This document shows, one piece after another, positions 1,924 through 18,376 of a stretch of 20,000 nt of DNA. Numbering within the stretch: position 1 is the first letter of the stretch; every line of letters begins with the position of its first letter. The translations under genes and the position numbers were made by a program. The DNA lies in the IMG/VR virus record IMGVR_UViG_3300027406_000071; one strand, given 5' to 3'. This stretch comes from an uncultured virus (IMG/VR IMGVR_UViG_3300027406_000071) (taxonomy: Duplodnaviria; Heunggongvirae; Uroviricota; Caudoviricetes). The notes under the pieces were generated by a model. The model searched no databases, was not told the DNA's origin, and saw only the letters and a program-made list of their open reading frames with translations.

Positions 1924-1926
1924 ATT

Positions 1927-2412
1927 CTATTGTGTTAAGAATATAGTAAACTTATCCCATAATGCATTCCATATGTGTGCATTATTGATGATAAATTTAG
2001 TTATAATAAAAATGATAAAACCTACAAATGTAGATCTAATAATATTACCAATAATAGGCAGCAGAGACAAATCATCAAATACTGGCCATAAAATTATTAA
2101 ATAAGAAACAGGCGATACCTTTTGTATTTGAGGATAAACCATATCTGCCAAACCTATTTGTAACATGTAGTTTCCAAAACCTGAAATCTTATTAAGAACA
2201 AATGCCTGTTGAATTTCACCAGATGCAGTTTGAACCTCTTCTGGTAAATTAACTACACCATAAATTCTACCCAACCAATCAACTCTTAATTGAAAGTCTT
2301 GATTTAATTGATCTTGATTTTGTTTTGCAGTTTTACGAAAAATCCACCAAACTCTAATATCTCTAGCTAATTCTACCCAATATACAAAAGTGTTTTTGAT
2401 CCAGTTCCACAT
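1927..2412 (-). CDS. Hypothetical membrane protein
   Basis: 161-aa ORF with hydrophobic C-terminal segments, tightly packed in the operon. Confidence 0.7.
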   Translation of the reverse strand: MWNWIKNTFVYWVELARDIRVWWIFRKTAKQNQDQLNQDFQLRVDWLGRIYGVVNLPEEVQTASGEIQQAFVLNKISGFGNYMLQIGLADMVYPQIQKVSPVSYLIILWPVFDDLSLLPIIGNIIRSTFVGFIIFIITKFIINNAHIWNALWDKFTIFLTQ

Positions 2413-2413
2413 A

Positions 2414-2698
2414 TTAATTTATTTTTGTTAATTCTTTTATAGTTGCTAACGGAACATTACCTGTTTGTCTTTCTACAATTTCGCCGTCTTCAAAATACAA
2501 TAATGTAGGTATCGATCTAATGCCATATTCTGCAGCAATGTCTGATTCTTCATCTACGTTAATTTTTAGTACTTTAACTTCACTAACTTCTTCTGAGTAT
2601 TTGTCTAATGTTTTAATAAGCATTTTACATGGTCCACACCATGCAGCCCAAAAATCTACTAATACTCTTCCTGTTTTAATTTCTTCTTTAAAATCCAT
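2414..2698 (-). CDS. trxA: Thioredoxin
   Basis: VDFWAAWCGPC active site and cis-Pro motif RSIPT. Confidence 0.95.
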   Translation of the reverse strand: MDFKEEIKTGRVLVDFWAAWCGPCKMLIKTLDKYSEEVSEVKVLKINVDEESDIAAEYGIRSIPTLLYFEDGEIVERQTGNVPLATIKELTKIN

Positions 2699-2707
2699 AT
2701 TTTAATT

Positions 2708-2923
2708 TTAATATATTTCCCATTCAGTTAATAATTCATTATCTGTAAGTCTAATATAAGTATCAAGTGACATGTGAATTGCTACTTGACCCTCTAATGT
2801 AAGAACTTTGGTGAATTCTACAGAATCTTCAAATCTTTCATCTGCATCTCCATTATAAAGTTCATCACTAATTTTAATTAGATTTTCAATTGATTCCTCT
2901 TGAATCCAAACTTCTATAGTCAT
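2708..2923 (-). CDS. Hypothetical acidic protein
   Basis: 71-aa ORF downstream of a class II promoter motif. Confidence 0.7.
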   Translation of the reverse strand: MTIEVWIQEESIENLIKISDELYNGDADERFEDSVEFTKVLTLEGQVAIHMSLDTYIRLTDNELLTEWEIY

Positions 2924-2938
2924 AATTATTGTTTAAGT

Positions 2939-2968
2939 ATTATATACTCTTATTTGATATTGTTTCAA
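2939..2968 (-). promoter_or_regulatory. Class II promoter-like motif TTGAAA-N18-TATAAT
   Basis: One of four copies of (T/G)TGAAACAA with TA(T/A)AA at identical 18-nt hexamer spacing, each just upstream of a gene start. Confidence 0.65.
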
Positions 2969-3572
2969 TTTGATGTTTCTTCAAATCTTTAAGAACATCT
3001 TTTTTAACTATTTCTAAATACTTTGCTCGTTTTTTATCACTTGCAAATGGTACTGACCAAAATTGTTTTGTCTTTAACCATCTTGAAATATTCCATCCAA
3101 ACACAAATGTAAATACACCCATCACTAAACGTAATTTAACCGAATTCAAATAAAGTGTTTTTACTGGCAATGAAGGTGCTCCATGTGTGATGTATGTTCT
3201 TACCTTTTTATCACTCAAAAATGGTTTTGGATATGCGTATGGTCCAATCACTGGGACAAACTTGTATGCAAAACCTGGAGTAAATACTTCGTCAAAGAAT
3301 ATCTCTGTTCTTGGTGTTAATCTAAACCACCAAACTGGAGATACGAAATAGATTCTGTCTGCCCAAGTTACTAACTCTTGATATTTTTTAATAAGATCTG
3401 TTCTTGGTCTAGAGAAATCATCTCTATATAAATCAATAACTTCTACCTCATTTAGGTAATCACTATCTAATAGAGTTTTCTGAATTGTCTTAAAAATACC
3501 ATTGTAACAGAAAGATTCCTGATCTGGATGACCTACTACAATCAAGTTCTGCATTCTTTCTAGCTTTTTCAT
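2940..3572 (-). CDS. NAD(P)H-dependent (quinone) oxidoreductase, flavodoxin-like fold
   Basis: VGHPDQESF, WADRIYFVSPVWWF and FFDEVFTPGFAY motifs of the Flavodoxin_2 family. Confidence 0.88.
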   Translation of the reverse strand: MKKLERMQNLIVVGHPDQESFCYNGIFKTIQKTLLDSDYLNEVEVIDLYRDDFSRPRTDLIKKYQELVTWADRIYFVSPVWWFRLTPRTEIFFDEVFTPGFAYKFVPVIGPYAYPKPFLSDKKVRTYITHGAPSLPVKTLYLNSVKLRLVMGVFTFVFGWNISRWLKTKQFWSVPFASDKKRAKYLEIVKKDVLKDLKKHQIETISNKSI

Positions 3573-3748
3573 AAAAATTGTTTAAATTGTGTTTCTTCTT
3601 TTTTTCTAGATTCTTCTAGTTTTTTTACATGATATTCTCTGGCATATTGTTCCATGATCTTGCTCATTGTTGTGTAATGAGAAAATGCATCACTATCTAT
3701 ATTTTTATTTGGCCATTCATTTTTATCTAACCATTCTTTTGCTGTCAT
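3569..3748 (-). CDS. Hypothetical 59-aa protein (MTAKEWLDKNEWP...)
   Basis: Hand-translated; fills the gap exactly, with ATGA overlaps at both ends. Confidence 0.75.
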   Translation of the reverse strand: MTAKEWLDKNEWPNKNIDSDAFSHYTTMSKIMEQYAREYHVKKLEESRKKEETQFKQFL

Positions 3749-4074
3749 TTTCTTTTCTTTTGAAATAATGGTATAGTCAATGTAACTGTGGCTCCTCCCA
3801 TCATAGTAGCTAACACATCTCTGCGCTCTACCGTACCACCAGTTCTACTATCATACAATTCTTTTAATATACCTGCTGAAATTGATGCTAACATTCCCGT
3901 TATTTGAGCTCTTGTTTTATTATTATGTTTTTTATATGACCAATAATAACCTACTGTGCTAGCTGCTGCGCCTGCTATAAAATGTATTTGTTTGTCTTTC
4001 TCTTGTAAAATAAAATTCTGCCCAACCATGTTTGTTGTTAACATAAATAGAATTATTAAAAAGAAATGTCTCAT
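3745..4074 (-). CDS. Membrane protein, YfiM-like
   Basis: Signal-like N-terminus; DKQIHF, KELYD and DVLAT motifs with hydrophobic helices. Confidence 0.65.
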   Translation of the reverse strand: MRHFFLIILFMLTTNMVGQNFILQEKDKQIHFIAGAAASTVGYYWSYKKHNNKTRAQITGMLASISAGILKELYDSRTGGTVERRDVLATMMGGATVTLTIPLFQKKRK

Positions 4075-4310
4075 CGGTTTGCTCTTTGGTTTTTTGATTT
4101 AAATCTGATACCATCATTATTTTTGGCATGCTTTGTCTTTCTGCCTTTAACTCGCTCTCTCCACATTTTAAATGAGGATTCTTTCATGTGCTTCCTCATT
4201 AACTTCCTAACATCATTCTCTTTAAGTCCGAATTGGAATTCAATGGCCTCAAATGGAGTTCTATCCTCCCAAGCCATTTCTATAATTCTATCAATTTGTT
4301 CTTCTGTCAT
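4071..4310 (-). CDS. TIGR03643 / DUF2805 family protein
   Basis: Recognisable IEMAWEDRTPFEAIEFQFGLKE...SSFKMWRERV signature. Confidence 0.88.
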   Translation of the reverse strand: MTEEQIDRIIEMAWEDRTPFEAIEFQFGLKENDVRKLMRKHMKESSFKMWRERVKGRKTKHAKNNDGIRFKSKNQRANR

Positions 4311-4390
4311 TTTGATCCTAGTATCATTAGAGTAAAAAACCCAATCACTGTAAGAATATTAATTATTGTATAAATTCTTTCTTCTTTCAT
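4307..4390 (-). CDS. 27-aa single-helix microprotein (MKEERIYTIINILTVIGFFTLMILGSK)
   Basis: Hand-translated; ATGA overlaps with both neighbours. Confidence 0.6.
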   Translation of the reverse strand: MKEERIYTIINILTVIGFFTLMILGSK

Positions 4391-4641
4391 TTCTCTGTAT
4401 AATTGTTCGTTAGTAACGTCAATAGAATATTCACCTCTGTAGGATTAGTAAATCTAATCTCCGGAGTTTCAAATGCCTCAACATACCATCCATCTTCTTC
4501 AACCTCATCACTTGCTGGTGAGATTAAGCTGAAGTTACCTACGTCGTATGTGTAGTAGTGGAAGTCATTTGGTGCTCCACTATTCTCAGCTGTCTCGTCA
4601 TTGCGAGTGAAGTCTAATTCTATTAGTTGCTTTTCTGTCAT
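4387..4641 (-). CDS. Hypothetical protein, cassette D of the repeat-delimited array
   Basis: Start codon lies inside junction repeat copy 1. Confidence 0.8.
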   Translation of the reverse strand: MTEKQLIELDFTRNDETAENSGAPNDFHYYTYDVGNFSLISPASDEVEEDGWYVEAFETPEIRFTNPTEVNILLTLLTNNYTEK

Positions 4642-4653
4642 CTCTCTTTGGTG

Positions 4654-4812
4654 TTAAAGACAATGGTCATTTAATGGTATATCATTCTCATTCTTATACC
4701 CAAGTCCAAGTGTAATATCCTCTTTAGTGGTAAGCGTTGTACCATCTTTATAAGTGATAGTTACTACTCCTTCTTTGACTTCAATCATTTGAACATTGTC
4801 TAATGGTTTCAT
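4654..4812 (-). CDS. Hypothetical 52-aa protein, cassette C (MKPLDNVQMIEVKEG...DHCL)
   Basis: Hand-translated; ATG in repeat copy 2, stop TAA inside the core of repeat copy 1. Confidence 0.75.
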   Translation of the reverse strand: MKPLDNVQMIEVKEGVVTITYKDGTTLTTKEDITLGLGYKNENDIPLNDHCL

Positions 4813-5093
4813 CTCTCTTTGGTGTTAAAGGTTTCTAATATATGTAGAGCAAAGTCTGCCATCATATCATAGTGATAATGAGCATAGGTTTGTCCTTCAC
4901 TACGATTAGACTGAACAAAGTCATCAGTCATAGATAGAATCTTGTCGTGTGTATCAGTACCATATTCTGCTAATACTTTATCCCACTCCTTTTTTAGCAC
5001 CTCTTTAGGTGTTGTCTTAACGATGTGTTCCATCTCTTCACCAAAGTTGTCAAAATCTGCTTCTGGATTGTAATTTGGATTTACTTCACTCAT
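4809..5093 (-). CDS. Hypothetical protein, cassette B, ending ETFNTKER
   Basis: ATG in repeat copy 3; C-terminus and TGA encoded by repeat copy 2. Confidence 0.8.
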   Translation of the reverse strand: MSEVNPNYNPEADFDNFGEEMEHIVKTTPKEVLKKEWDKVLAEYGTDTHDKILSMTDDFVQSNRSEGQTYAHYHYDMMADFALHILETFNTKER

Positions 5094-5239
5094 CTCTCTT
5101 TGGTGTTAAAGGTTTCTTCCTTGTAGTTCTTAATACATTCCTCCTCCATTAGGTCAACCCATTTTGAGTACGAGATTTCTTCTCTATTAAGTTGCCATTC
5201 CAACTCTCTTACAAATCCTTGCTTTAAGTATTTACCCAT
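5090..5239 (-). CDS. Hypothetical 49-aa protein, cassette A (MGKYLKQGF...ETFNTKER)
   Basis: Hand-translated; ATG in the arm of repeat copy 4; C-terminus encoded by repeat copy 3. Confidence 0.78.
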   Translation of the reverse strand: MGKYLKQGFVRELEWQLNREEISYSKWVDLMEEECIKNYKEETFNTKER

Positions 5240-5250
5240 TGTCTTTGGTG

Positions 5251-5496
5251 TTAAACATACATTGGAAAATCTACACCATGTCGGTGTACAAATGAGTTGT
5301 GTACCTCTTCATCTAATTCAATTCTTACATCAACATCACTGTCCTTAAACATTCCAGTTAAAGCAGTAATATCAAAGTCAGTATATTCTTGATCTTCAGT
5401 TTTATCTTCTAGCGTTCTTAATGCAGTTTGATAAACTTGTAATGCTTTTACAATAATATCCCTTTGTGGCTGTGGTAATTTAACTGTGTTTCTCAT
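5251..5496 (-). CDS. Hypothetical protein (MRNTVKLPQPQRD...), 81 aa
   Basis: Start moved from 5631 to 5496 to avoid overlap; stop TAA lies in repeat copy 4. Confidence 0.7.
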   Translation of the reverse strand: MRNTVKLPQPQRDIIVKALQVYQTALRTLEDKTEDQEYTDFDITALTGMFKDSDVDVRIELDEEVHNSFVHRHGVDFPMYV

Positions 5497-5974: not shown

Positions 5975-6826
5975 TTATTCATATGCTTTAGGGTTAGGTA
6001 ATCCACTGTAATAATCCCAATCTTTTAAATCATCTCTGTGGATAGGTACATTCCATTTAGGATCATACCAAAATCTACGGTTCTTAGAATCTATACGAGT
6101 ATCCATCATTTTGTTTCCATAACACAACATAAATTTTTCTTGAATTGCGTTTTCGCCAAATGGATTATCCCAATCTTTGATGCTTCCACCGCCCTTTGCG
6201 TATGCCAACATTGGAATATCTGTACATAATTCTAGTATTTTTGGGTACTTTGCAATTTGTTGTGCTGCCGGAAGAAATGGATCAACATCACCTGCTCTAA
6301 AAATAATTTCAGCTCTTAGATAATTACCAATACCATTAAACCATTTTTGATCCATAAGAACCTCATATAATGGTTTACGAAATGTTTTTTTAGTTAGATT
6401 TGTCATGATATTCAAAAAGAATTCACGTGGTTCTGTTGTTGGATCTGGACCTCTTCCTTCATTCCAACTCAAACCTTGTGTCCATTTACCAAAACGTCTA
6501 ACATCTACAAATGACAATGTTGTTCCATCTTTTCTATAAAATTTAAGATGTGCGTGTTTGTCTTCTTGTCCAGTGTTAGTAGTTCTAAAATGACCACTCA
6601 TACCCATAGTAATACGTATAGGAATAGTTGCTTCACTATCATCATCTTTGATAGTTAATATGATCTCTTTACCTTTACTTTCTGAAGTTAGTGTAAAATA
6701 TTTAAATGGGATATCTAATTCTGCCCCTTTGTGTTGAGGATTCTTTTTTACATTTGTGTAAATCATTCCACTTGATGCTTGATTTACATAGTCTGATGTT
6801 AATTTAAGTTCGGCTAGTTCTGGCAT
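5975..6826 (-). CDS. Fpg/Nei family DNA glycosylase/AP lyase, NEIL1-like
   Basis: N-terminal catalytic MPE; GMSG; FVDVRRFG; H2TH motif LMDQKWFNGIGNYLRAEI; no C-terminal four-Cys zinc finger. Confidence 0.92.
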   Translation of the reverse strand: MPELAELKLTSDYVNQASSGMIYTNVKKNPQHKGAELDIPFKYFTLTSESKGKEIILTIKDDDSEATIPIRITMGMSGHFRTTNTGQEDKHAHLKFYRKDGTTLSFVDVRRFGKWTQGLSWNEGRGPDPTTEPREFFLNIMTNLTKKTFRKPLYEVLMDQKWFNGIGNYLRAEIIFRAGDVDPFLPAAQQIAKYPKILELCTDIPMLAYAKGGGSIKDWDNPFGENAIQEKFMLCYGNKMMDTRIDSKNRRFWYDPKWNVPIHRDDLKDWDYYSGLPNPKAYE

Positions 6827-6828
6827 AA

Positions 6829-7053
6829 TTAAAATGGTAAGTCTTGGTTCAACAATTTTTCTGTCTTGATTGCATCAATATCAACTTCCTTTACGTTTAA
6901 TGATGCGAACGGTGTAATATGCAATTTATGTACATCCCACTGTTGATTTGGGTGCAACGCATTCTGGTTTTTGGCGATCAGTTCTGCTTTAGAAAAAGCA
7001 TGTTTATCATTGTCACCTTCAATGTAAACTTCATAAGTTACTGTATATCTCAT
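6829..7053 (-). CDS. Hypothetical protein
   Basis: 74-aa ORF directly downstream of a class I promoter motif. Confidence 0.75.
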   Translation of the reverse strand: MRYTVTYEVYIEGDNDKHAFSKAELIAKNQNALHPNQQWDVHKLHITPFASLNVKEVDIDAIKTEKLLNQDLPF

Positions 7054-7070
7054 AGTTCTGCTTTAATATT

Positions 7071-7124
7071 ATACTACTAATATACAAAAAGTTTATGACA
7101 TAAAAAAATCTGGGTGAATTATTT
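7071..7124 (-). promoter_or_regulatory. Class I promoter-like repeat GATTTTTTTATGTCA-N10-GTATATTAGT
   Basis: Same two boxes with a fixed 10-nt spacer at 11821, 12258 and 19923; always intergenic and upstream of a minus-strand gene. Confidence 0.8.
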
Positions 7125-7129
7125 TACTA

Positions 7130-7702
7130 CTAATGGTGAATTAATATATGATCATCGAAATATTGATCAAACATTTTGTTCCATTCTTTAGTTTCCATTA
7201 ATGTAATATGTAGATTTTTACCATCTGGAAATGCATTACTTGATAATCCCTTTGGAATGGTGAATATAACTACACCGTCATCTGCTAAATAAGATTTCAT
7301 TTCAGATAATAATTCCGGTAACTCTTCTAATGGCACATGTTCTAAAACTTCTGTACACATTATAATATCGAATGTTCCTGTTGGTTTTTTACAATATTCT
7401 GGGTGGGCAGGATCATATCTATAAAATCCTCTTAATCTTGAACCAAAGTGTTCACTAGCAGTTTTACGTTCTTTAACTCCTGGAATTGGCACTTTTTTTG
7501 TCCAATGTACTCCAGTTCCAGATCCAAAATCTAAGATAGTACCGCTACCTCTTTTATCTAATTCATATTCTAATTCGCCATATATCTTTTGAATTCCGCC
7601 CCCATCAAAAACTGTTTTTTCTTTTAACGTGACCATTTTACCATTTCTTAAAAATGGTTTACCTTCAAAAATGTCTTTGTAATATTTTAGATATTTACTC
7701 AT
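7130..7702 (-). CDS. Class I SAM-dependent methyltransferase
   Basis: Motif I ILDFGSGTG and FDIIMCTEVLEHVP. Confidence 0.88.
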   Translation of the reverse strand: MSKYLKYYKDIFEGKPFLRNGKMVTLKEKTVFDGGGIQKIYGELEYELDKRGSGTILDFGSGTGVHWTKKVPIPGVKERKTASEHFGSRLRGFYRYDPAHPEYCKKPTGTFDIIMCTEVLEHVPLEELPELLSEMKSYLADDGVVIFTIPKGLSSNAFPDGKNLHITLMETKEWNKMFDQYFDDHILIHH

Positions 7703-7719
7703 TGTTTAAAGTTAAAAAA

Positions 7720-7781
7720 TGGAACAGATTCTACCACAGGACGGGGGCCCATAACAGTGGTTAGATATAGAACCTGCTCCA
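7720..7781 (-). ncRNA. Candidate small structured RNA or 5' leader hairpin upstream of the methyltransferase
   Basis: GGAGCAGGTTCTA/TAGAATCTGTTCC 13-bp stem with two G-U pairs; inner CCAC/GTGG helix; followed by TTTTTT; GC-rich relative to surroundings. Confidence 0.5.
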
Positions 7782-7810
7782 ATAATATATTTATCATGGT
7801 TTTATTTCAT

Positions 7811-7835
7811 AAAAAAGCCTCTCGTTTGAGAGGCT
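7811..7835 (-). terminator. Intrinsic terminator downstream of tRNA-Ala
   Basis: AGCCTCTC-AAAC-GAGAGGCT followed by a T run on the minus strand. Confidence 0.85.
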
Positions 7836-7842
7836 AATTTCG

Positions 7843-7950
<108 letters not shown>

Positions 7951-7960
7951 AATAAAAAAA

Positions 7961-8359
7961 GGAAGGATCGTGTACTAAGGTATACTAGCCTTAGAAGATC
8001 GACTTATTGTGTTGATTACTGCATACCAATCAACTTTACTATTATTTCAAGTTCTACTCAAGATGGTTAAATCTCGTTGTAGTGCCACAACGGCTTTGAT
8101 TGTACTTTATCCCCTAATAAGACAGGATGTTCAGTCACTTAGGCAAGGCTTCCTCTCGGGTACTTGCAATGCTCTTAGAAAGATTAGTTTAGATATCTTT
8201 CCCGATCTACCACCTTCTACTCTGTCGAGTCTTAGTTACGCACTTTTGCAACTAAGCCGGAACTTGTCCGATGTCTAGTGTGCCTTAATCCCTCTTTCCG
8301 TCAGGATTTTTTCGGCAATACACTCACATTATCAATGATCAATATCTAATGTGCCTTCC
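7961..8359 (-). ncRNA. Candidate large (~400 nt) structured noncoding RNA, family unassigned
   Basis: Ends pair (GGAAGG/CCTTCC); about ten local helices, GNRA-capped hairpins and a long-range helix; no minus-strand ORF of 60 aa or more; followed by a T7 run; adjacent to a tRNA. Confidence 0.75.
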
Positions 8360-8363
8360 AATA

Positions 8364-8374
8364 TTTTAAAGAAC
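8364..8374 (-). promoter_or_regulatory. boxA-like element GTTCTTTAAAA just upstream of the ncRNA/tRNA unit
   Basis: Resembles the rrn antitermination boxA (TGCTCTTTAACA); lies immediately 5' of the RNA candidate. Confidence 0.45.
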
Positions 8375-8414
8375 GTTTCCTTGGTACTTTATATATACCA
8401 ATTAATATTTGGTA

Positions 8415-8591
8415 CTATGCTTTGTTTGCTGCACTTACTGCAACTCTTACGTCTTGTGCTAATCCTTTGATTACTTGCATAGCCTTACGTACTCTTGTAC
8501 CTGCTGCTTTGTTTCCTTTTTCTGAGAATTTTGCTGCATCCTCTTGGATGTTAGTCAATTCTTCTTGGATTTGATTTAATAATTCTGTCAT
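8415..8591 (-). CDS. Histone H1-like (Hc1 family) nucleoid protein, 58 aa
   Basis: Hand-translated MTELLNQIQEELTNIQEDAAKFSEKGNKAAGTRVRKAMQVIKGLAQDVRVAVSAANKA; KGNKAAGTRxRK is the Hc1 signature. Confidence 0.88.
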   Translation of the reverse strand: MTELLNQIQEELTNIQEDAAKFSEKGNKAAGTRVRKAMQVIKGLAQDVRVAVSAANKA

Positions 8592-8617
8592 AATATTTGT
8601 TTTTTAAATTTATACCT

Positions 8618-8647
8618 GTTATACTCTGCTAAATTGATTTGTTTCAA
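8618..8647 (-). promoter_or_regulatory. Class II promoter-like motif TTGAAA-N18-TATAAC
   Basis: Matches the copies at 2939, 9734 and 16311. Confidence 0.65.
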
Positions 8648-8653
8648 CTTTTT

Positions 8654-8860
8654 TTAATCTTTTTTACTTTCTCCGATTACTGTTACTGATTTTACATTTT
8701 CATCAGATGCTAATATATGATTAGCGTATGCTTCTGTGTTTTTAATATTGGAATAAATTCTCTTTTCTAGAGTTTTATATTCTACTTCAACATCCCATCC
8801 TCCTGGAACAAGACTTTTTGAATTAGTTCTATACTCATCACTTATATAATATCCTTCCAT
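8654..8860 (-). CDS. Hypothetical protein
   Basis: 68-aa ORF in the minus-strand run. Confidence 0.7.
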   Translation of the reverse strand: MEGYYISDEYRTNSKSLVPGGWDVEVEYKTLEKRIYSNIKNTEAYANHILASDENVKSVTVIGESKKD

Positions 8861-8861
8861 A

Positions 8862-9029
8862 TTATTGTTTTTTTAATAAGATCCATAAAAATAAATATAC
8901 TAGTGAGCTTGATGGAACTAATAAGAATATGATTCTCCATGCGAGTGCTGATGTATCTGACCATCTTGCGATTCCTCCACAAACTCCTCCTAAATACCTA
9001 TTGTTTTTATTTCTTTTTATTGTTGTCAT
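8862..9029 (-). CDS. pspC: PspC domain protein, 55 aa
   Basis: Hand-translated MTTIKRNKNNRYLGGVCGGIARWSD...WRIIFLL...YLFLWILL; R-x-x-GGVCGGIA and Y-x-x-LW motifs. Confidence 0.85.
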   Translation of the reverse strand: MTTIKRNKNNRYLGGVCGGIARWSDTSALAWRIIFLLVPSSSLVYLFLWILLKKQ

Positions 9030-9141
9030 TTTTGTCTTCTATTATATTACCGTAATCATCCATAAGTGGAGCATTTTTGATTTCTTTAAATATCCAAACC
9101 CATACTAAACCGAATATAATTCCTGCTATTGTCATGCTCAT
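9007..9141 (-). CDS. 44-aa membrane microprotein (MSMTIAGIIFGLVWVWIFKEIKNAP...)
   Basis: Hand-translated; ATGA overlap with the upstream gene. Confidence 0.6.
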   Translation of the reverse strand: MSMTIAGIIFGLVWVWIFKEIKNAPLMDDYGNIIEDKNDNNKKK

Positions 9142-9341
9142 TGTGTTTTATTTTGAGTTCCTGTTATTTGATATGCTTCATGTAGCTTATCTTGAGCTGC
9201 ACTAACTAGATCTTTTATTTCTGTTTCTATTTTAGCTACTGGATGTTGTTGTAAATGATCATCTATCATAGACATAATTACATGTAATCTATCCAACATT
9301 TCATGATAATGAAACTGATCTAATTTAGGTTTTTGGCTCAT
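9138..9341 (-). CDS. Hypothetical protein
   Basis: 67-aa ORF with ATGA overlaps. Confidence 0.75.
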   Translation of the reverse strand: MSQKPKLDQFHYHEMLDRLHVIMSMIDDHLQQHPVAKIETEIKDLVSAAQDKLHEAYQITGTQNKTQ

Positions 9342-9538
9342 ATATTTCTAGATAAGATTTTAGCGTCTTCTTCTTTCACTAATTGATCTATATCTGTCCA
9401 ACATAATTCTATCTCATGTGTTTCTGGACTTCCTTCTTCAATTTCCATAATACACAGATCTAATAAACCTTGTATATCACTTTCTAGAACTGGATATTTT
9501 TTAATAACTTCGTTTGCGTACTCTATTAAATTAGTCAT
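9338..9538 (-). CDS. Hypothetical protein (MTNLIEYANEV...)
   Basis: Start moved to 9538, after the upstream small ORF stop. Confidence 0.7.
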   Translation of the reverse strand: MTNLIEYANEVIKKYPVLESDIQGLLDLCIMEIEEGSPETHEIELCWTDIDQLVKEEDAKILSRNI

Positions 9539-9540
9539 AT

Positions 9541-9714
9541 TTATAAAATTATCTGTGTTAATGCCCATAATAAAAATGCAACTAATCCTGTTTTAATAAC
9601 ATAATCATTTACTTTATAATTATTTTCAACTTGTCTTTTAGATCTTCCTTGCCACTCGTTAGGATCCCATTCTTTAGTTCTTGATTTAAAGATATTTGGT
9701 TTTGTCTTACTCAT
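9541..9714 (-). CDS. 57-aa protein with C-terminal transmembrane helix (MSKTKPNIF...WQGRSKRQVENNYK...)
   Basis: Hand-translated; follows the class II promoter motif at 9734-9763. Confidence 0.7.
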   Translation of the reverse strand: MSKTKPNIFKSRTKEWDPNEWQGRSKRQVENNYKVNDYVIKTGLVAFLLWALTQIIL

Positions 9715-9733
9715 GTTTTGTTGATTGTTTATA

Positions 9734-9763
9734 TTTATATTAAGATTATTTAATTTGTTTCAC
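9734..9763 (-). promoter_or_regulatory. Class II promoter-like motif GTGAAA-N18-TATAAA
   Basis: Matches the other three copies in sequence and spacing. Confidence 0.6.
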
Positions 9764-10440
9764 TATAATTTGTGGATGAATGGAACACCATTTTTAATTG
9801 TCATGTACTCATATGGGAGTGCGTCAACAAAATAATGATTATCATCATAGTCAATTAATGACATATTAGTATGTCCAACGATTTGTACAATAGTATCGTT
9901 AAGAGGATTACGTCTTAGGGCTTGAGGTCTAATCCACATTGGACCTTCACCATCATAATTACCATACATTTCCATGCCACTGTGATTAAACGATCTCTTA
10001 TCATAAGACCAAAGATCATTAATTTGTTCTGGGATATTACCACCTTCTGGGAAATTGGTGTCATACCACACTTTCGAAACGCCAGCATGTGTAAATAAAA
10101 ACTTATCTACCTGATATGCTACTTGTAAATGTTCTTTAGTTTCTTTTAAGAGTTCACCAATTTCTGGTGCGTGCCATACATTATATCCACCATATCTTCC
10201 ACCACAATCTGACATATAGTGAAAGTCATGATTACCGATCAGCATAGTTACTTTAACATCAGTAGATTCCTTCCATGCAATAATCTCTTTGTAATTATAG
10301 ATTTGTTCTACATGTGGAATTGAGAATGAATCAAAGTAGTCTCCAATAAATACAAACTCTGTGGCATCAGGATTTAACTCGATAAGTTTCTTCCAACTAT
10401 CGTGTCCGTGAATGTCTCCTATTACTACTATTTTGTTCAT
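9763..10440 (-). CDS. Calcineurin-like metallophosphoesterase
   Basis: GDIHG, GDYFD, GNHD, THAG and VGHT motifs. Confidence 0.92.
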   Translation of the reverse strand: MNKIVVIGDIHGHDSWKKLIELNPDATEFVFIGDYFDSFSIPHVEQIYNYKEIIAWKESTDVKVTMLIGNHDFHYMSDCGGRYGGYNVWHAPEIGELLKETKEHLQVAYQVDKFLFTHAGVSKVWYDTNFPEGGNIPEQINDLWSYDKRSFNHSGMEMYGNYDGEGPMWIRPQALRRNPLNDTIVQIVGHTNMSLIDYDDNHYFVDALPYEYMTIKNGVPFIHKL

Positions 10441-10619
10441 TTGAATTTCTTTTTAAAAATAATTAATTTTAATTGAATATAAAACTTAAGATCATAATAC
10501 CATCTAAACTTTCTTCGCCTTTTTGCTTTTTTGAGCCAACTCTCATCTTTATAGGATATTCTTTCTATCCAACTTGTAACTGATTCGTCTTCTCTTCGAG
10601 CGTGGCGATGTTTAGTCAT
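10437..10619 (-). CDS. Small basic hypothetical protein (MTKHRHARRE...)
   Basis: Start moved to 10619; ATGA overlap with the phosphoesterase. Confidence 0.6.
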   Translation of the reverse strand: MTKHRHARREDESVTSWIERISYKDESWLKKAKRRRKFRWYYDLKFYIQLKLIIFKKKFK

Positions 10620-10758
10620 CTCTGTTCTTGTGTTTTTTTGTGCGTCTATACTTTTTCTTATTTCTAACTGGAGTAGGCATACGAAGAGCATCCAACCACT
10701 CTTGTAGTGTTAGATTTACTTCTTTTAATTTTTTGCCTTTATTTTCCATGATTGTCAT
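10612..10758 (-). CDS. 48-aa basic protein (MTIMENKG...RNKKKYRRTKKHKNRDD)
   Basis: Hand-translated; fills the gap. Confidence 0.6.
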   Translation of the reverse strand: MTIMENKGKKLKEVNLTLQEWLDALRMPTPVRNKKKYRRTKKHKNRDD

Positions 10759-10867
10759 TATTTTTTGGTCTAACTAAACAATTAACACAAATGTTAGTTA
10801 ATAATAAACCACTTGGTATATTGTCTCCACATATATTACACGTTTCGTGATACTCTTTACTTTCCAT
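10739..10867 (-). CDS. 42-aa putative zinc-binding microprotein (CNIC...CVNC)
   Basis: Hand-translated MESKEYHETCNICGDNIPSGLLLTNICVNCLVRPKNNDNHGK; two CxxC pairs. Confidence 0.55.
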   Translation of the reverse strand: MESKEYHETCNICGDNIPSGLLLTNICVNCLVRPKNNDNHGK

Positions 10868-11132
10868 ATTTATTTCTTTCCCATCCTCCAAGTGGCATTA
10901 TTTCTTCACCTGTTCCCATTGGCGCTTTCTCATTTACCCATTCTTCTTTTCCAGTTGAGATTCCCATAATTTTAATATTATCATTACCTGAAATAAGTTT
11001 AGCTTTTTCAATAGCTTCGGCGTTATTTTCAGCCATCACGCAAATCGTAAAATCTTGGAACTTATTAAATGCTCGTTCTCTATGATCTTCGTCATAATAA
11101 TGTAAATAATATATTACAGTTGGTTTTTTCAT
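10857..11132 (-). CDS. Hypothetical protein
   Basis: 91-aa ORF. Confidence 0.7.
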   Translation of the reverse strand: MKKPTVIYYLHYYDEDHRERAFNKFQDFTICVMAENNAEAIEKAKLISGNDNIKIMGISTGKEEWVNEKAPMGTGEEIMPLGGWERNKYGK

Positions 11133-11173
11133 AAATCTATACTGTTCTTTGGTTTAGAGACATTTTTTATATG

Positions 11174-11416
11174 CTACTTTTTAAATTTGGTTTCATATTT
11201 GATTCTTTTTTTCAATTCAGCTTGACCTTCTGGTGAAAAGTTATATATTAACTCTCTGAGATCTTGTTCATTTAGAGTGTCCATATATACTGGATTGAAT
11301 GGCATTTTTTGCTCTTTACAGATTTCTTCAAATTCTAAAAGTAAAGTAGCTTTGGTGTTTAAACCTTTTAAAAGTTCTTTTTCTCTAGGGGTAATGTATT
11401 TTTCGTTTTCTGACAT
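11174..11416 (-). CDS. Hypothetical protein (MSENEKYITP...)
   Basis: Start moved to 11416 to avoid overlap. Confidence 0.7.
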   Translation of the reverse strand: MSENEKYITPREKELLKGLNTKATLLLEFEEICKEQKMPFNPVYMDTLNEQDLRELIYNFSPEGQAELKKRIKYETKFKK

Positions 11417-11426
11417 GTTATATGAA

Positions 11427-11795
11427 TTAATTTGATTGATTATTTTTTTTGGTATTACGATAATTAACAACTGCTTTTGCAAGGCGATCCATGCGTTCTT
11501 TAGGATCTTGAATCATCACACGTGCTGTGGTTTCGTAAATTTTACCATTGTAAGATGATTTGTAGTAACCTTTGCGCTGTGGATTTAATTGATAGATGGT
11601 TTCATGAAATTTACCACCATAATAAGACCTGGCAGCAGATGATAGTAACTTAGTTTTGTAACTTCTGCGAATATAACCACTTTCATAAGAAAGATAGTCA
11701 CAATTTGTAATTGGGTCATGATAACATATTGTACCATTGTCAGCTTGTCGTTGTGAAGTTACTTCAACACATTTAAGAGATTGTAATTTGTTCAT
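11427..11795 (-). CDS. Hypothetical protein
   Basis: 122-aa ORF downstream of a class I promoter motif. Confidence 0.75.
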   Translation of the reverse strand: MNKLQSLKCVEVTSQRQADNGTICYHDPITNCDYLSYESGYIRRSYKTKLLSSAARSYYGGKFHETIYQLNPQRKGYYKSSYNGKIYETTARVMIQDPKERMDRLAKAVVNYRNTKKNNQSN

Positions 11796-11820
11796 TTTTA
11801 TTTGTTTTGATTAATACTCT

Positions 11821-11855
11821 ACTAATATACCAAAAAATATTGACATAAAAAAATC
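11821..11855 (-). promoter_or_regulatory. Class I promoter-like repeat
   Basis: ACTAATATAC-N10-TGACATAAAAAAATC on the + strand. Confidence 0.8.
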
Positions 11856-12217
11856 TATGCTAATATTTTTTCACTTTTTTTAGCCTTAATGTGTTTACAA
11901 TCTCCTCTAAAGAAATTCATTGCTGGACAATTACATCCCCAAACACCGTTTGTTTCAGTAACATCATAGAATTTTCCAGGCTTAGAAGACTCTACTTTCC
12001 ATGATCTGTTTTCAGTTTTAGTTTTAGTGATCACTGACACAGGTTTTGGTTTTTCTATTTTAGTACTTTTGTCAAACTTAATCTGATCTCTAGTAGTTCC
12101 TTTAGGAACCGGGTGCCAACCTGGACATACATAAGTAGCATCAACTGTATTTACTATAGCAAATACGTCGCCATAACAATTATCGTAAGGGAATGTAAAA
12201 GTAGAAGTGTTTGACAT
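11855..12217 (-). CDS. SWIM zinc-finger protein
   Basis: Y-x-V...WGCNCP...CKH (CxC...CxH) motif at the C-terminus. Confidence 0.8.
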   Translation of the reverse strand: MSNTSTFTFPYDNCYGDVFAIVNTVDATYVCPGWHPVPKGTTRDQIKFDKSTKIEKPKPVSVITKTKTENRSWKVESSKPGKFYDVTETNGVWGCNCPAMNFFRGDCKHIKAKKSEKILA

Positions 12218-12229
12218 AATTTGTGTTTG

Positions 12230-12304
12230 GTGAGGTATTAACCTCCATTAGTATACTACTAATATACCACAAATAAATGACATAAAAAAATCTGGGTGAT
12301 TTAT
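12230..12304 (-). promoter_or_regulatory. Class I promoter-like repeat plus leader hairpin GAGGT-TAAT-ACCTC
   Basis: 63 bp (12230-12292) match 19895-19957 with 3 mismatches; the distal part also matches 7096-7124. Confidence 0.82.
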
Positions 12305-12321
12305 TTTTAAAAAAGTTTCAA

Positions 12322-12729
12322 TTAAAATTTATCGGAGAATATATCTTCTATGTCTTCGTGAATTTCTTCAGCAGTTACATCTAATTCTAACATAATGTTT
12401 GCACGATATGTTAATTCTTTACTTCCGTTATTGAATACTAAAATAGTTGGAATAGATCTTACCTTGTATTTCTTTTTAAGATCTGGGTATTTTTCAATAT
12501 CTACTCTGTAATATGTTCCATCTTCTATTGCTTCCCATTCTGAAAATGGCTCAACAAAAGAGGCTACAAATTCTACAATAACTATACCTGTATTAATAGA
12601 CTTGCTAAATGTGTCAGAAGTTAAATACTTTGGTTCTCCCTCAGTTATTCCTGCATTAGTTGAATCTGCTATCGTAGACGATGCCATTAATCCAAATGCT
12701 AATAAAAATACAATTACTATCTTTTTCAT
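12322..12729 (-). CDS. Exported thioredoxin-fold protein lacking CXXC
   Basis: Signal peptide; IVIVEFVASF in place of VDFWAxWC; KYKVRSIPTILVF; no cysteines. Confidence 0.75.
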   Translation of the reverse strand: MKKIVIVFLLAFGLMASSTIADSTNAGITEGEPKYLTSDTFSKSINTGIVIVEFVASFVEPFSEWEAIEDGTYYRVDIEKYPDLKKKYKVRSIPTILVFNNGSKELTYRANIMLELDVTAEEIHEDIEDIFSDKF

Positions 12730-12731
12730 AA

Positions 12732-13841
12732 TTATCTAAATTGGAAGTTTAAGCCAGCTTTAGCAGTAAATACTTGTCTATCCCAATATTGTAGATAATT
12801 CATTTCTGCAAAAACACCTAACTTCTTTGTTATTTTCCATCCTGTCATTGCACCGATTGTAAAATCAGTCCATTGCGCATCTTCTCCTTCACTAATAAAC
12901 TTACCATAAGAAAAGTCTTTGTTACCCATAACCTGTTGGTGATATGGCATAACTGAAGTGTAAATGTGTGCCCAGTTATTTCCATCTTGTGAATAATGAT
13001 AAAAATCTAATCCAATTACTGGAGATATTGTACCAAGATCTTCAATTTGTATAAGTCTTTCTCTATTAAAGTCATTTACAATACCACCGAATACATTAGT
13101 TCTAAAATCTAAATCTGTATCTGAAACTCTCTCACCATTTTCATCATTCCAAAAGAAATCAAAGTTATCTAATTCTCCATCGTTATCATAATCGATACCA
13201 TAATAGTTATCATTGTAACCATTGTCGTATGCTAATTGCCACCATGGATTATCATCTAAGTAATCTGCAATTGGTAAGTAACCATAAGGTCTATGTGTTC
13301 TAAATGCAGCACCGATAGAAAGGTTAAGTTTTTTACCTATTGGTTTTCTCCATCTAAGATCTACTGCCCTGTAATCCAAATCTGCAAGACCATCTTGCAT
13401 TTGTTCTAGTTTAAAGATAAAGTTATCTCCTAAATATCTAAGAAATATATCTTCTCTTGTGTATTCATTACCAAACTGTCTTGCCCATTCCCATTGGAAT
13501 TTATATTCCCAACCTTTAACAGCACCTATATTAGAACTTAATCCTGTTTGGATTTCTGTACCATCATAGAACGCATTAGGTTTATTCTCATAATCAAATC
13601 TTGCAACCTTTCTAATACCAAAACCATAAGAATAATTAGTTTCAGCATCTGGTGTAACATCAAATAGTTCTCCACCTTGATCTACGAAATAAGTTTTTTG
13701 TGTGCTAGTTTGTGGTTGTGCTTCTCCAGCAACTCCATAAATAGTAGAGTATTTAAAGAATTTCTTAACCTTCTTTGTAATCTGTGCGTCCGCAGTACTA
13801 AATGATACCAACGCGATAATAAGTAATAATAGTTTTTTCAT
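12732..13841 (-). CDS. Exported protein, possible outer-membrane beta-barrel
   Basis: Signal peptide MKKLLLLIIALVSFSTADA (start moved to 13841); aromatic-rich alternating strands; C-terminal AKAGLNFQFR; DYDNDG loop. Confidence 0.65.
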   Translation of the reverse strand: MKKLLLLIIALVSFSTADAQITKKVKKFFKYSTIYGVAGEAQPQTSTQKTYFVDQGGELFDVTPDAETNYSYGFGIRKVARFDYENKPNAFYDGTEIQTGLSSNIGAVKGWEYKFQWEWARQFGNEYTREDIFLRYLGDNFIFKLEQMQDGLADLDYRAVDLRWRKPIGKKLNLSIGAAFRTHRPYGYLPIADYLDDNPWWQLAYDNGYNDNYYGIDYDNDGELDNFDFFWNDENGERVSDTDLDFRTNVFGGIVNDFNRERLIQIEDLGTISPVIGLDFYHYSQDGNNWAHIYTSVMPYHQQVMGNKDFSYGKFISEGEDAQWTDFTIGAMTGWKITKKLGVFAEMNYLQYWDRQVFTAKAGLNFQFR

Positions 13842-13842
13842 G

Positions 13843-14136
13843 TTATCTGTTACGAAGATGTTTTTCAATTGCCTTTAAATCCTCTTTCATTTCTTCTACA
13901 TCTTCTTGTGTATTTAATATTGTAGAACGTACTAACTCATCTTTGAGTTCATATTCAGTTCTAGAAATGTTAGGAGCTGGTAGAGTTTTAGCTGCTTCTA
14001 TCTCATCTCTCATATCATCGAGTTGAGCTTGGAATGCGAACCAAAAACTTACCACTGTTGTGATTGCCACAGCTATTGCGATTAGTGTTTTTACACTAAC
14101 TTTAATTCCGCTGTCTTCATTTAATTCTTTTGCCAT
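13843..14136 (-). CDS. Single-pass membrane protein with coiled-coil
   Basis: Helix LIAIAVAITTVVSFWFAF followed by heptad-like acidic helices. Confidence 0.75.
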   Translation of the reverse strand: MAKELNEDSGIKVSVKTLIAIAVAITTVVSFWFAFQAQLDDMRDEIEAAKTLPAPNISRTEYELKDELVRSTILNTQEDVEEMKEDLKAIEKHLRNR

Positions 14137-14202
14137 TGTATAACAATGTATTTTTTATGCATAATGCTACAATGTATATATCTTGTAAAATACTTATTTG
14201 AT

Positions 14203-15372
14203 CTAAATAAGACTTCTGAACTTCTCTGCTTCTATTTGATTGATCTTATCGGATATTGCAGATCCTTTTAAGCCAAACTTTTTCATGACATCTCCACCTT
14301 TGGTTGATGGTTTATATTTAAAGAACACTTTTAAAGTTTTAGTGTCGAGTTTATTAATTTTTGCAAATTCTAGAATAGTTTTGGTGTCTAATTTAGAAGA
14401 TATTTGAATCTTCATATATTGTTTATGTAAATTAAATACATCATTTATATCAAACGTCATTAAACTCTTTAGGAATAATATTGAATCAATTTCACCGTTT
14501 GTAAACGATGCTTTATTTAATTCCTTCTGTATTGTATCATTATCATTATTACTAAATAGAATTGCAATCTGTACTATCCAATTGTTAGTGTTAATAAACT
14601 TTTCGTTAATTTGTAAAGATGGAAACATGATTGACCACAAATTAAATTCTGATACCATGTTTAAATAACTCTTTGCTGATTTTGCAGAAACAATAGATTT
14701 CTTAAATTCATCTCTAATTCTTTCAGAACTAATACCTTCTAAACTATTATCGATTAAAATAGCATCTGCAGTTTCTTTTTCTAATTTTGATCCTGTTCTA
14801 CCTGCAAATCGCAACGCCCTTAATTTTCTAAGTGGATCTTCTGCAAATCTATCTGCGGCGACACCAACTGTTCTAATTTTTGAGTTTTTTATATCATCTA
14901 AACCTCCAACTAAATCTACAATCTCTTTTCTGCCCATATCATAAAATAGTGCATTAATTGTTAGATCTCTTCTTAATACATCTTTATCAATTGTAGAATA
15001 TTCCACTGCATCTGGTCTTCTTCCCTTTCCAACATCTTCTCTAAATGTTGCAATCTCAACACCCGCTGGATCCGAAGGTACATTTACAATAACTACTCCA
15101 AATTGATGACCAACTTCTCCAGTAGTTGAGTAACCAGCGTTAGTAACAATATCTATAACTTCTGCAGGAAACGCATCAGTTGCCAAATCAAAATCCTTTG
15201 GCTTTTTACCTAGCAATGCATCTCTCACTGCACCACCCACAATAAACAATTCCTTGCCATTTTGTTTAAATAGTTTATGCAATTCTAAAATATCCTTTGG
15301 AACATTTAATTTAAGAGAATTGTTGGCTTCTAATAAAAGCTTAAAATTTTTAAATGATTCTACTAATCTCAT
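14203..15372 (-). CDS. cca: CCA tRNA nucleotidyltransferase (class II)
   Basis: VGGAVRD, KDFDLAT, EIATFR, RRDLTINAL, EDPLRKLRALRF and ERIRDEF motifs. Confidence 0.9.
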   Translation of the reverse strand: MRLVESFKNFKLLLEANNSLKLNVPKDILELHKLFKQNGKELFIVGGAVRDALLGKKPKDFDLATDAFPAEVIDIVTNAGYSTTGEVGHQFGVVIVNVPSDPAGVEIATFREDVGKGRRPDAVEYSTIDKDVLRRDLTINALFYDMGRKEIVDLVGGLDDIKNSKIRTVGVAADRFAEDPLRKLRALRFAGRTGSKLEKETADAILIDNSLEGISSERIRDEFKKSIVSAKSAKSYLNMVSEFNLWSIMFPSLQINEKFINTNNWIVQIAILFSNNDNDTIQKELNKASFTNGEIDSILFLKSLMTFDINDVFNLHKQYMKIQISSKLDTKTILEFAKINKLDTKTLKVFFKYKPSTKGGDVMKKFGLKGSAISDKINQIEAEKFRSLI

Positions 15373-15389
15373 GTATTATATATCAAATA

Positions 15390-15644
15390 CTATAATTTAT
15401 GTTTGAATTCCTTTAGATATAAACACTTTTCATATTCTTCTTGTTTCTCAAAATATGAAATCATTTCATCTAAATCATCTTCAGTTGGTGTTGCATCGGG
15501 TTCTATAAAAAATACTGGCATCATATCATCAGGAAATTCTTGACCTTCTTCAACAATTATAAAGGACAAATACACTAATAATTGTTCAAGTGTTGCACCT
15601 CCAGATAATAATTGATATGAATTTTCTATTGATTGTCCGTACAT
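15390..15644 (-). CDS. Hypothetical protein with UVR-like C-terminal motif (EEYEKC)
   Basis: 84-aa acidic ORF ending YFEKQEEYEKCLYLK. Confidence 0.7.
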   Translation of the reverse strand: MYGQSIENSYQLLSGGATLEQLLVYLSFIIVEEGQEFPDDMMPVFFIEPDATPTEDDLDEMISYFEKQEEYEKCLYLKEFKHKL

Positions 15645-15647
15645 TCT

Positions 15648-16286: not shown

Positions 16287-16310
16287 AAATTATAACTATT
16301 TTTTATATTT

Positions 16311-16340
16311 ATTTTATCGTTTAAATCTATATTGTTTCAC
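16311..16340 (-). promoter_or_regulatory. Class II promoter-like motif GTGAAA-N18-TAAAAT
   Basis: Matches the other three copies; upstream of the glycosyltransferase. Confidence 0.55.
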
Positions 16341-16919: not shown

Positions 16920-16963
16920 AATATTAAATGTTTTTCAATACTCTAATAGTATCTATTCATTTT

Positions 16964-18259: not shown

Positions 18260-18261
18260 AA

Positions 18262-18375
18262 TTATATCATTTTTAAAAGATTACTAACTAGTAGAATCAT
18301 GTATAATCCAAAGGCTACGGTTAATACAATATCTACGCTATCTATATTTTGTACAATTGATTTTATTTTTCTCAT
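18262..18375 (-). CDS. 37-aa membrane microprotein (MRKIKSIVQNIDSVDIVLTVAFGLY...)
   Basis: Hand-translated; fills the gap exactly. Confidence 0.55.
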   Translation of the reverse strand: MRKIKSIVQNIDSVDIVLTVAFGLYMILLVSNLLKMI

Positions 18376-18376
18376 A

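Follow-up and report, generated by a model that had tools for sequence, protein, structure and literature searches.

A covarying 400-nucleotide RNA of marine phages with a probable distant relation to manA

The uncultured virus record IMGVR_UViG_3300027406_000071 contains, at positions 7961-8359 of the window analysed here (20,000 nucleotides (nt), part of a 56.7-kb IMG/VR virus record estimated to be 25% complete), a stretch between a gene for an Hc1 histone-like protein (8591-8415) and a tRNA-Ala(UGC) gene (7916-7842) that holds no minus-strand open reading frame (ORF) of at least 40 amino acids (aa). All credible genes of the window are on the minus strand. What, then, does this stretch encode? 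An earlier note had placed a noncoding region exactly here, beside the tRNA-Ala gene, and had proposed a new or divergent large phage RNA; both the position and the proposal hold, as the element is about 400 nt long, supported by covariation, carried by a virus record and below Rfam thresholds. The minus strand of the stretch carries a genuine gene for a structured RNA. As to its novelty, sequence and structure comparison points to a divergent rather than a wholly new RNA: it is probably a divergent relative of manA (Rfam family RF01745), which its 3' half distantly resembles below the Rfam cut-off, with a 5' half that matches nothing catalogued.

A structured RNA gene on the minus strand

Within 7961-8359 the G+C content is 0.38-0.41, while most flanking windows lie at 0.25-0.33. 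Folding of the minus strand yields -108.2 kcal/mol (z-score -3.14), which none of 100 shuffles matched, whereas the plus strand reaches -92.8 kcal/mol (z-score -1.37; 11 of 100 shuffles as good). At curated thresholds Rfam detects tRNA alone in the window, with no GOLLD, ROOL, OLE, HEARO, raiA, RNase P, transfer-messenger RNA (tmRNA) or group I/II intron; none of these families appears among matches up to E 10 in 7700-8700 and 8150-8400 either, in agreement with the earlier note for RNase P, tmRNA and the introns. For the 5' half (8150-8400) the Rfam search returned chance-level rows only (E 5.8-9.7), so that apart from these the 5' domain has no Rfam family at E <=10.

Homologues could be collected from viromes and metagenomes, and 33 distinct full-length sequences were aligned (alignment A3, 466 columns): 31 from marine metagenomes, the window and a second IMG/VR phage, G013. 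From the 42 metagenome loci, seven partial and four duplicate sequences were left out. RNAalifold finds 101 pairs in this alignment, 30 of them with compensatory changes, so that the covariation which the earlier note had proposed to test is abundant. A curated structure of 97 pairs in 20 helices has 98.1% of its cells paired across the 33 sequences, compared with a mean of 93.0% in shuffles; 30 pairs changed on both sides, compared with a shuffle mean of 19.1, and none of 500 shuffles reached 30. When partners were slid by one to three columns, pairing fell to 33.6-41.3% with 3-9 two-sided changes. All 33 full-length copies contain both domains in the same order. The features, all on the minus strand except the last, are as follows.

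8360..8374 (-): conserved leader; GUUCUUU (8374-8368) is invariant in 33/33 and is followed by an A/U-rich run
7961..8359 (-): structured RNA proper, closed by the terminal helix P1
8359-8354 with 7966-7961 (-): P1, terminal helix, GGAAGG with CCUUCC; 3/6 pairs with two-sided changes
8325..8353 (-): P2, hairpin CACAUUA/UAAUGUG; the outer stem covaries
8173..8324 (-): 5' domain, with the 5' strand of P3 and with P4-P9, without a catalogued relative
8323-8319 with 7974-7970 (-): P3, long-range helix, GUGUA with UACAC; one compensated pair
In the 5' domain (-): P4, GCC/GGC plus AAUCCU/GGGAUU
8280-8277 with 8214-8211 (-): P5, CACU with GGUG; 2/4 pairs compensated
In the 5' domain (-): P6 and P7, with 3/5 and 6/9 pairs compensated
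In the 5' domain (-): P8, with a GACA loop
8208-8203 (-): AGAUCG, invariant, in the 5' domain
In the 5' domain (-): P9, GAAAGAU/AUCUUUC, from per-sequence folds
8021..8172 (-): manA-like 3' domain, with P10, P11, a junction, P12 and P14-P17
In the 3' domain (-): P10, GCAU/AUGC, which closes the domain
In the 3' domain (-): P11, hairpin with a GNRA loop
In the 3' domain (-): junction AAGUGACUGAA, between P11 and P12
In the 3' domain (-): P12, clamp ACU/AGU around the hairpin AUCCU/GGGAU; 1/3 pairs compensated
In the 3' domain (-): P14, CAAUC/GAUUG, which closes the three-hairpin multiloop; 3/5 pairs compensated
Inside P14 (-): multiloop with P15, P16 (loop UUUAACCA), AGAAC and P17
7967..8020 (-): 3' tail, mostly unpaired, with CGAUCU (8001-7996), P18, the 3' strand of P3 and junction GAU
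7994-7989 with 7980-7975 (-): P18, hairpin CUAAGG with CCUUAG; 4/6 pairs with two-sided changes
7954..7960 (-): U-run directly after P1, in most clades and not in the L266 clade
8009..8278 (+): spurious 89-aa ORF on the strand opposite the RNA

Because the terminal helix covaries, with compensated pairs split AU:16/GC:12, GC:26/AU:7 and AU:21/GC:11, 8359-7961 is one RNA and not a set of separate modules. Conservation overshoots this stretch slightly, from GUUCUUU at 8374 to the end of the U-run at 7954. In the 3' domain the clamp P12 (columns 273-275 with 303-305) is 100% paired, with one pair split CG:19/UA:14, and two pairs of P14 are split UA:18/CG:15 and CG:17/UA:16; P15-P17 are 97-100% paired. 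The P2 hairpin forms in all 16 distinct sequences folded, and its apical region contains an invariant UGAUC (8341-8337) with the self-complementary GAUC. P9 was misaligned by MAFFT in two clades; it forms with compensation in all 11 distinct sequence types, for example as GAAAGAU/AUCUUUC in some and GAAAUAG/CUAUUUC in others.

Of the 14 structural claims in the earlier note, 10 stand and four helices fail in the 33-sequence alignment. The terminal pairing, the CACATTA/TAATGTG hairpin (by covariation and per-sequence folds), GAAAGAT/ATCTTTC and CTAAGG/CCTTAG correspond to P1, P2, P9 and P18. Covariation or per-sequence folds likewise support GCC/GGC with AATCCT/GGGATT, CGGA/TCCG, CTTAGTTGC/GTAACTAAG and the hairpin CTC-GACA-GAG. 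In the hairpin CC-GAGA-GG the pairs never vary and the loop is always of the GNRA type (GAGA or GAAA). Both GAGTAGA motifs are present, and the minus orientation that had been deduced from G-U pairs is borne out by such pairs in 33/33 sequences at columns 94/105, 149/162 and 334/349. The helix AGTGT/ACACT, in contrast, shows no compensation, and both its strands belong to other covarying helices (GUGUA with UACAC, and CACU with GGUG, the latter with pairs split CG:18/UA:14 and CG:20/UA:6/UG:6). GTTGATT/AATCAAC is 78.4% paired; GAUUG pairs upstream with CAAUC instead, with two pairs switching together. The proposed long-range helix AAGGTGGT/ACCATCTT has unpaired cells in 4/8 pairs and no compensation, and ACCA is located in the P16 hairpin loop instead. 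CGTTGTG/TACAACG, with 19 unpaired cells and no compensation, fits worse than P15 plus P16.

Further contacts were considered in the same alignment. AGAUCG (8208-8203) and CGAUCU (8001-7996) are 97% paired, with six unpaired cells and no compensation. A loop pseudoknot GAAAGA/UCUUUC was dropped as not positionally homologous after realignment, and no claim is made for tertiary pairs from a pairwise column search, in which a two-clade sequence split dominated the signal. Pooled, the six tested helices that were rejected or left open show three pairs with two-sided changes, no better than their shuffles (mean 3.3). Whether Hc1 or tRNA-Ala precedes, the invariant GUUCUUU is present 9-15 nt before P1. 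Within the RNA, the invariant AGAAC and AAGAGC are complementary to it, and nothing varies in these segments; no sigma-70-like site was called at this leader. The leader may serve as promoter element, processing site or pairing partner.

Resemblance to manA and a conserved setting

The model of manA aligns in full (model positions 1-192) to 7970-8158 of the minus strand with 32.7 bits, at E 1.8e-6 in a scan of 1 kb with all families and at E 2.4e-8 when run against the 56.7-kb record. A match in the same place, below threshold, was obtained in 20/20 relatives (23.6-34.4 bits). The correspondence extends to the parts of the core: the manA junction GUGaCUGAA ... UAAgGu with its clamp around a hairpin is present here and aligns to the model; also present is the helix-closed three-hairpin multiloop, in which AGAAC precedes the third hairpin and GGU follows it. 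In general form, both RNAs share a hairpin, a GUGAC(U/C)GAA junction, a clamp of two to three pairs around a hairpin, closed by UAA(A/G)GUA, and the three-hairpin multiloop. Both are also carried by marine T4-like phages, and in 2/20 scanned canonical manA loci a tRNA lies within 8 nt downstream. It is thus likely that the 3' domain is a distant homologue of manA, although by threshold it is not a member of the Rfam family.

The two RNAs differ in size and in setting. While manA has ~190 nt, the present RNA has about 400, adding a 5' domain of 150 nt and a 3' tail that are enclosed by the new helices P1 and P3, and its ACCA-bearing loop sits on the second hairpin rather than on the third as in manA. 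In addition, a place in the 5' untranslated region of a protein-coding gene, of the cis-regulatory type, is among the marks of manA. The present RNA does not lie in such a position: it follows Hc1, a gene found beside 0/201 manA-pattern loci, and precedes a U-run, a terminator, a tRNA or varying ORFs. 

Further copies of the RNA were found in one IMG/VR phage (G013), on 42 marine metagenome contigs and on two contigs of metagenome-assembled genomes (MAGs) labelled Flavobacteriales; the 42 marine metagenome loci are 80-99.5% identical to the RNA. These 42 were retrieved with an exact 21-nt block that is identical in the window and in G013. Among 45 whole related records RF01745 has a single match, in G013 (212 kb, 76% complete; 27.8 bits); by BLAST this copy is 92% identical across all 399 nt and the other 44 records contain none. 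A T4 gp23-type capsid protein is encoded in 4/5 related records searched, G013 included, and the window fragment is without one. The CCA-adding enzyme of the window phage retrieved 49 related viral loci, in which nhmmer and BLAST found no copy of the RNA, the G013 copy lying elsewhere in its record. A model of the 3' domain (R1) found G013 as the sole copy in 59 loci of related phages. Exact patterns had 0 matches in IMG/VR, although G013 contains the second of them. A locus search with the neighbouring methyltransferase gave no relatives, and patterns of the manA core retrieved from IMG/VR canonical manA RNAs and chance matches, none resembling the present RNA. In a phage collection 291 records match; among the best 40 the matches fall on a tRNA or, once, on the Hc1 gene, and none of these 40 covers 80% of the query.

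A different conserved pattern occurs at three places in prokaryote genome contigs, two of which carry the RNA (184 bits with the model built here): L308 and L309, from the MAGs G046 (labelled Flavobacteriales) and G047 (Flavobacteriaceae). At the third, L310 (Poribacteria), there is no RNA. Both bins hold further fragments of the same phage type on other contigs. The presence of the RNA in these bins hints weakly at a flavobacterial host, with which the Hc1 gene and the low G+C content agree, or else is a binning artefact.

The most constant part of the setting is the Hc1 gene. In 35 of the 42 metagenome loci it precedes the RNA on the same strand and, as the other seven have <=183 upstream bases, this amounts to 35/35 with enough sequence. 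In 28 loci 48-66 nt separate Hc1 from the RNA; in the seven that have a tRNA-Ala in between, the distance is 150-174 nt. A tRNA is found in the available flanks of 22/42 loci, in 21 of these tRNA-Ala(UGC), which precedes or follows the RNA depending on the locus, often with a tRNA-Gly beside it. The genes of G013 stand in the order Hc1, tRNA-Ala, RNA, tRNA-Gly, with tRNA-Gly beginning right after the U-run of the RNA. No gene is conserved downstream; a U-run, an extra terminator, a tRNA or differing ORFs follow according to clade. Around the RNA in the window, the neighbouring features are these.

8415..8591 (-): Hc1 histone-like gene, 58 aa (Pfam Hc1, E 6.3e-21)
7917..7950 (-): terminator-like hairpin AGAGUAGA/UCUACUCU with a U-run, read from the sequence
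7842..7916 (-): tRNA-Ala(UGC), with an intrinsic terminator behind it (7835-7816)

The hairpin at 7917..7950, between the RNA and tRNA-Ala, is specific to the strain group of the window, occurs also in L296 and L307, and was not called by a simple terminator scan.

The RNA is also found in marine metatranscriptomes, a check on which the RNA call of the earlier note depended. Six runs contain 78-90% of the sampled words of 7800-8600, and depth was compared over 6500-10500 in four runs from four studies (X15, X16, X17 and X19), using assembled contigs with one depth each. Over 7840-8375 the summed depth is 570-701 in X15, 66.8-600 in X16, 709-5346 in X17 and 136-405 in X19, compared with 0-67.9 over 6500-7839 and 8778-10500. 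In X17 the contig of the RNA has a depth of 4114, that of Hc1 203 and the flanks 5-15. In X19 there is no cover outside 7840-8643, which is no sign of silence there. In X16 and X19 a contig stops at 7965, which is 4 nt into the 3' strand of P1, and borders there on Illumina adapter sequence. As the pentamers CGATC and CTTCC occur both in the adapter and near this end of the RNA, the stop may be a real 3' end or mis-priming on CGAUC/CUUCC.

A proposed trans-acting RNA and the alternatives

Taken as a whole, the locus is reasonably well explained by a trans-acting RNA of ~400-435 nt, built on a manA-type 3' core, in uncultured marine T4-like phages that have large genomes. Its covarying terminal helix joins the 5' and 3' ends of one compact molecule, in which a 5' domain of ~150 nt and unassigned kind is combined with a 3' domain of ~150 nt, a putative enlarged and distant manA relative that shares the GUGAC(U/C)GAA ... 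UAA(A/G)GUA clamp and the helix-closed three-hairpin junction with AGAAC. The RNA would be transcribed with or just behind the Hc1 gene and be freed when transcription terminates at the U-run behind P1 or, where a tRNA adjoins, through tRNA processing. It would then act in trans as an abundant free-standing RNA. Because there is no conserved downstream gene, it is not read as a riboswitch or leader, and a free-standing RNA is the most likely form. A preprint reports manA RNAs that form RNA-only cages of 8, 10 and 60 subunits via kissing loops (10.64898/2026.07.01.735769). By analogy with manA, ROOL and GOLLD, the present RNA may self-assemble into a particle through its conserved loops (GAUC in the P2 loop, AGAUCG and the ACCA loop).

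Several observations weigh against this account. All manA scores lie far under the Rfam gathering threshold of 55.2 bits and hence below membership, while canonical copies reach 63-195 bits in 18/20 scanned manA-pattern loci. The manA outer stem (5' GGGaG with 3' CuCCC) is not kept: the stem that the model assigns in its place, CUAAG/CUUAG, is 67.7% paired in the family, its 3' strand forms the covarying P18, and the helix GCAU/AUGC closes the 3' domain instead. The 3' hairpins of manA (model ~130-185) are not kept either, as seen from non-standard-pair marks and low posteriors, and the family has a mostly unpaired tail and P18 where manA has these hairpins. The reverse search is weak: R1, run with default filters and of low information content, gave three matches at E <=1 in 100 manA-pattern loci, the best with 19 bits and E 0.026 (L073; the others are L051 with 15.9 bits, like L073 at a confirmed manA site, and L137 with 13.7 bits, not scanned with Rfam). 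The invariance of columns ~350-370 (the 3' strand of P16b, AGAAC, and the 5' strand and loop of P17) is uninformative because the 21-nt search pattern fixes that block, including AGAAC and part of P16/P17. The candidate loop contacts are invariant or uncompensated, so that no covariation bears on oligomerisation. As to expression, the 5' part of the RNA and the upstream genes are equal in depth in X16 (66.8), and contigs run from Hc1 into the RNA in X15 (7865-8673) and X19 (8041-8632), so that the RNA may remain within the Hc1 transcript. Contig depths may be inflated by related strains collapsing onto the conserved RNA, DNA carry-over is possible, and the RNA ends are taken from contigs rather than from end mapping.

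The likeness to manA could be convergent or due to chance, in which case the RNA would be a new class; this is possible, though we consider it unlikely. Such a reading would draw on the sub-cut-off score of every member and the marginal reverse search, on the outer stem, the register of the first hairpin and the 3' hairpins, all of which differ from manA, and on the failure of nhmmer, used with either half of the RNA, to find any sequence likeness in the first 120 manA-pattern loci. It has difficulty with the match to the full-length model, at the E-values given above, and with GUGAC-GAA, UAA-GUA, AGAAC and GGU standing at the same junctions of the same topology, the helices of which covary. 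The carriers are, moreover, the same kind of virus from the same habitat as those of manA. Homology thus appears to be the better explanation of the shared core, as far as alignment can tell.

A bolder extension of the account, which we regard as an outside chance of about the same rank as convergence, is that the RNA builds particles, with a manA-type cage core whose geometry is altered by the new 150-nt domain or which recruits Hc1 through it. If so, infected marine and possibly flavobacterial cells would contain an abundant phage RNA or RNA-protein compartment, for instance one holding tRNAs or condensing nucleic acid, and GAUC of the P2 loop and AGAUCG would be contacts between subunits.

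Alternatively, the RNA could belong to Hc1 itself, either as a structured 3' tail of the Hc1 mRNA that stabilises or regulates the message, or as an RNA partner of the Hc1 protein. The unbroken association with an upstream Hc1 gene, the library contigs that join the two, the absence of any called sigma-70-like promoter between them and the specificity of the link to this RNA family, as seen in its absence from the manA-pattern loci, are all in line with this possibility. It is nevertheless rather improbable. Because a tRNA-Ala intervenes between Hc1 and the RNA in 7/35 loci and in G013, tRNA processing would sever the RNA from the Hc1 message; the RNA contig of X17 far exceeds the Hc1 contig in depth; Hc1 is kept without the RNA in 9/10 of its loci in IMG/VR; and a protective mRNA tail needs no ornate closed fold.

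That two or more small RNAs stand in tandem, each domain being closed by its own helices (P5 and P10), is very unlikely in view of P1, which pairs the first six with the last six nucleotides and has three compensated pairs, and of P3, which links 8323-8319 to 7974-7970. Both domains keep their order in every copy, and neither was found alone in the 59 related loci searched with R1.

Still less can be said for a riboswitch or cis-regulatory leader that controls the tRNA or gene behind it, a reading that finds hardly any room here. Its appeal stems from manA, which has been placed among riboswitch candidates and comes from marine metagenomes and T4-like cyanophages (Weinberg 2010, PMC2864571), and from the window alone, in which some strands have two possible partners, such as AAUCAA upstream and AAUCAAC downstream for GUUGAUU. 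These alternative pairings are not conserved in the family (78.4% and 67.7% paired), a terminator, a tRNA or unrelated ORFs lie downstream depending on the clade, and P1 separates the RNA from the flanking sequence.

The 89-aa plus-strand protein can be set aside almost entirely and is refuted by the homologues: the frame at 8009-8278, intact in the window, is open in 2/33 of them, interrupted by in-frame stops in 31/33 and lost by frame shift in 25/33, its substitutions (352/361/331 by codon position) lack a third-position excess, it has no Pfam or PHROG match, and the protein-level conservation that would have spoken against an RNA is absent.

Wider comparison and the surrounding region

Among large RNAs, GOLLD and ROOL are associated with phages and tRNA genes and exceed the present RNA in size. 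The present RNA shares with them the character of a large, many-helix, phage- and tRNA-associated ncRNA of unsettled function. It differs from them in being smaller, in having marine T4-like carriers and in showing no Rfam match to either at E <=10. Cryogenic electron microscopy (cryo-EM) is reported to show both as homo-oligomeric RNA-only complexes (Kretsch et al. 2025, PMC12286853).

A tie between an Hc1-family protein and an ncRNA has a counterpart elsewhere. Chlamydial Hc1 is functionally tied to IhtA, a short antisense-type repressor that is encoded elsewhere, whereas the RNA described here has a closed fold of 400 nt and lies downstream of the gene. A search of a full-text library yielded no paper on a manA-type RNA of enlarged size or on a phage RNA linked to Hc1; variant manA copies may be listed in the supplements of Weinberg 2010.

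Large ornate RNAs of bacteria and phages are few, and none has a settled function. Even manA, a 'riboswitch candidate' in 2010 and an 'RNA-only cage' in the 2026 preprint, still lacks a biological role. The present family offers a manA-type core within a larger closed fold, together with a covariation-rich alignment, and is a good target for cryo-EM. It is present at high contig depth in ocean metatranscriptomes. Its fixed Hc1 partner provides an experimental handle, and it could show whether the cage-forming core can be reused as a module. In marine T4-like phages it is an unannotated RNA gene that should be marked.

The RNA sits in a variable island, because none of the 49 loci retrieved with the CCA-adding enzyme has window 7058-9753. 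One of these loci, L204, is 99.8% identical to window 9754-20000 and diverges below 9754; the segment 7058-9753, with the methyltransferase, tRNA-Ala, the RNA, Hc1 and small ORFs, is absent from it and from the other 48. This island moves between related phages. The CCA-adding enzyme is encoded at 14203-15372 (PHROG tRNA nucleotidyltransferase, E 4e-56).

Hc1 lies in a region of RNA genes in other such phages as well. A permuted tmRNA (RF04321, 72.8 bits) is located in a related IMG/VR phage, at L261:1723-1877, and also in L262, between tRNA-Ile and Hc1, and in L261 Hc1 is followed by tRNA-Thr and tRNA-Arg.

Finally, the window contains four copies of a 75-nt intergenic repeat (7039-7113, 11784-11858, 12221-12295 and 19886-19960) that are 65-91% identical. 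Each is found just upstream of the start of a minus-strand gene, with a plus-strand core TACTACTAATATACC...TGACATAAAAAAATC, and the repeat is probably a class of phage promoter or 5' leader. Pieces like it recur on several contigs of the MAG G047.

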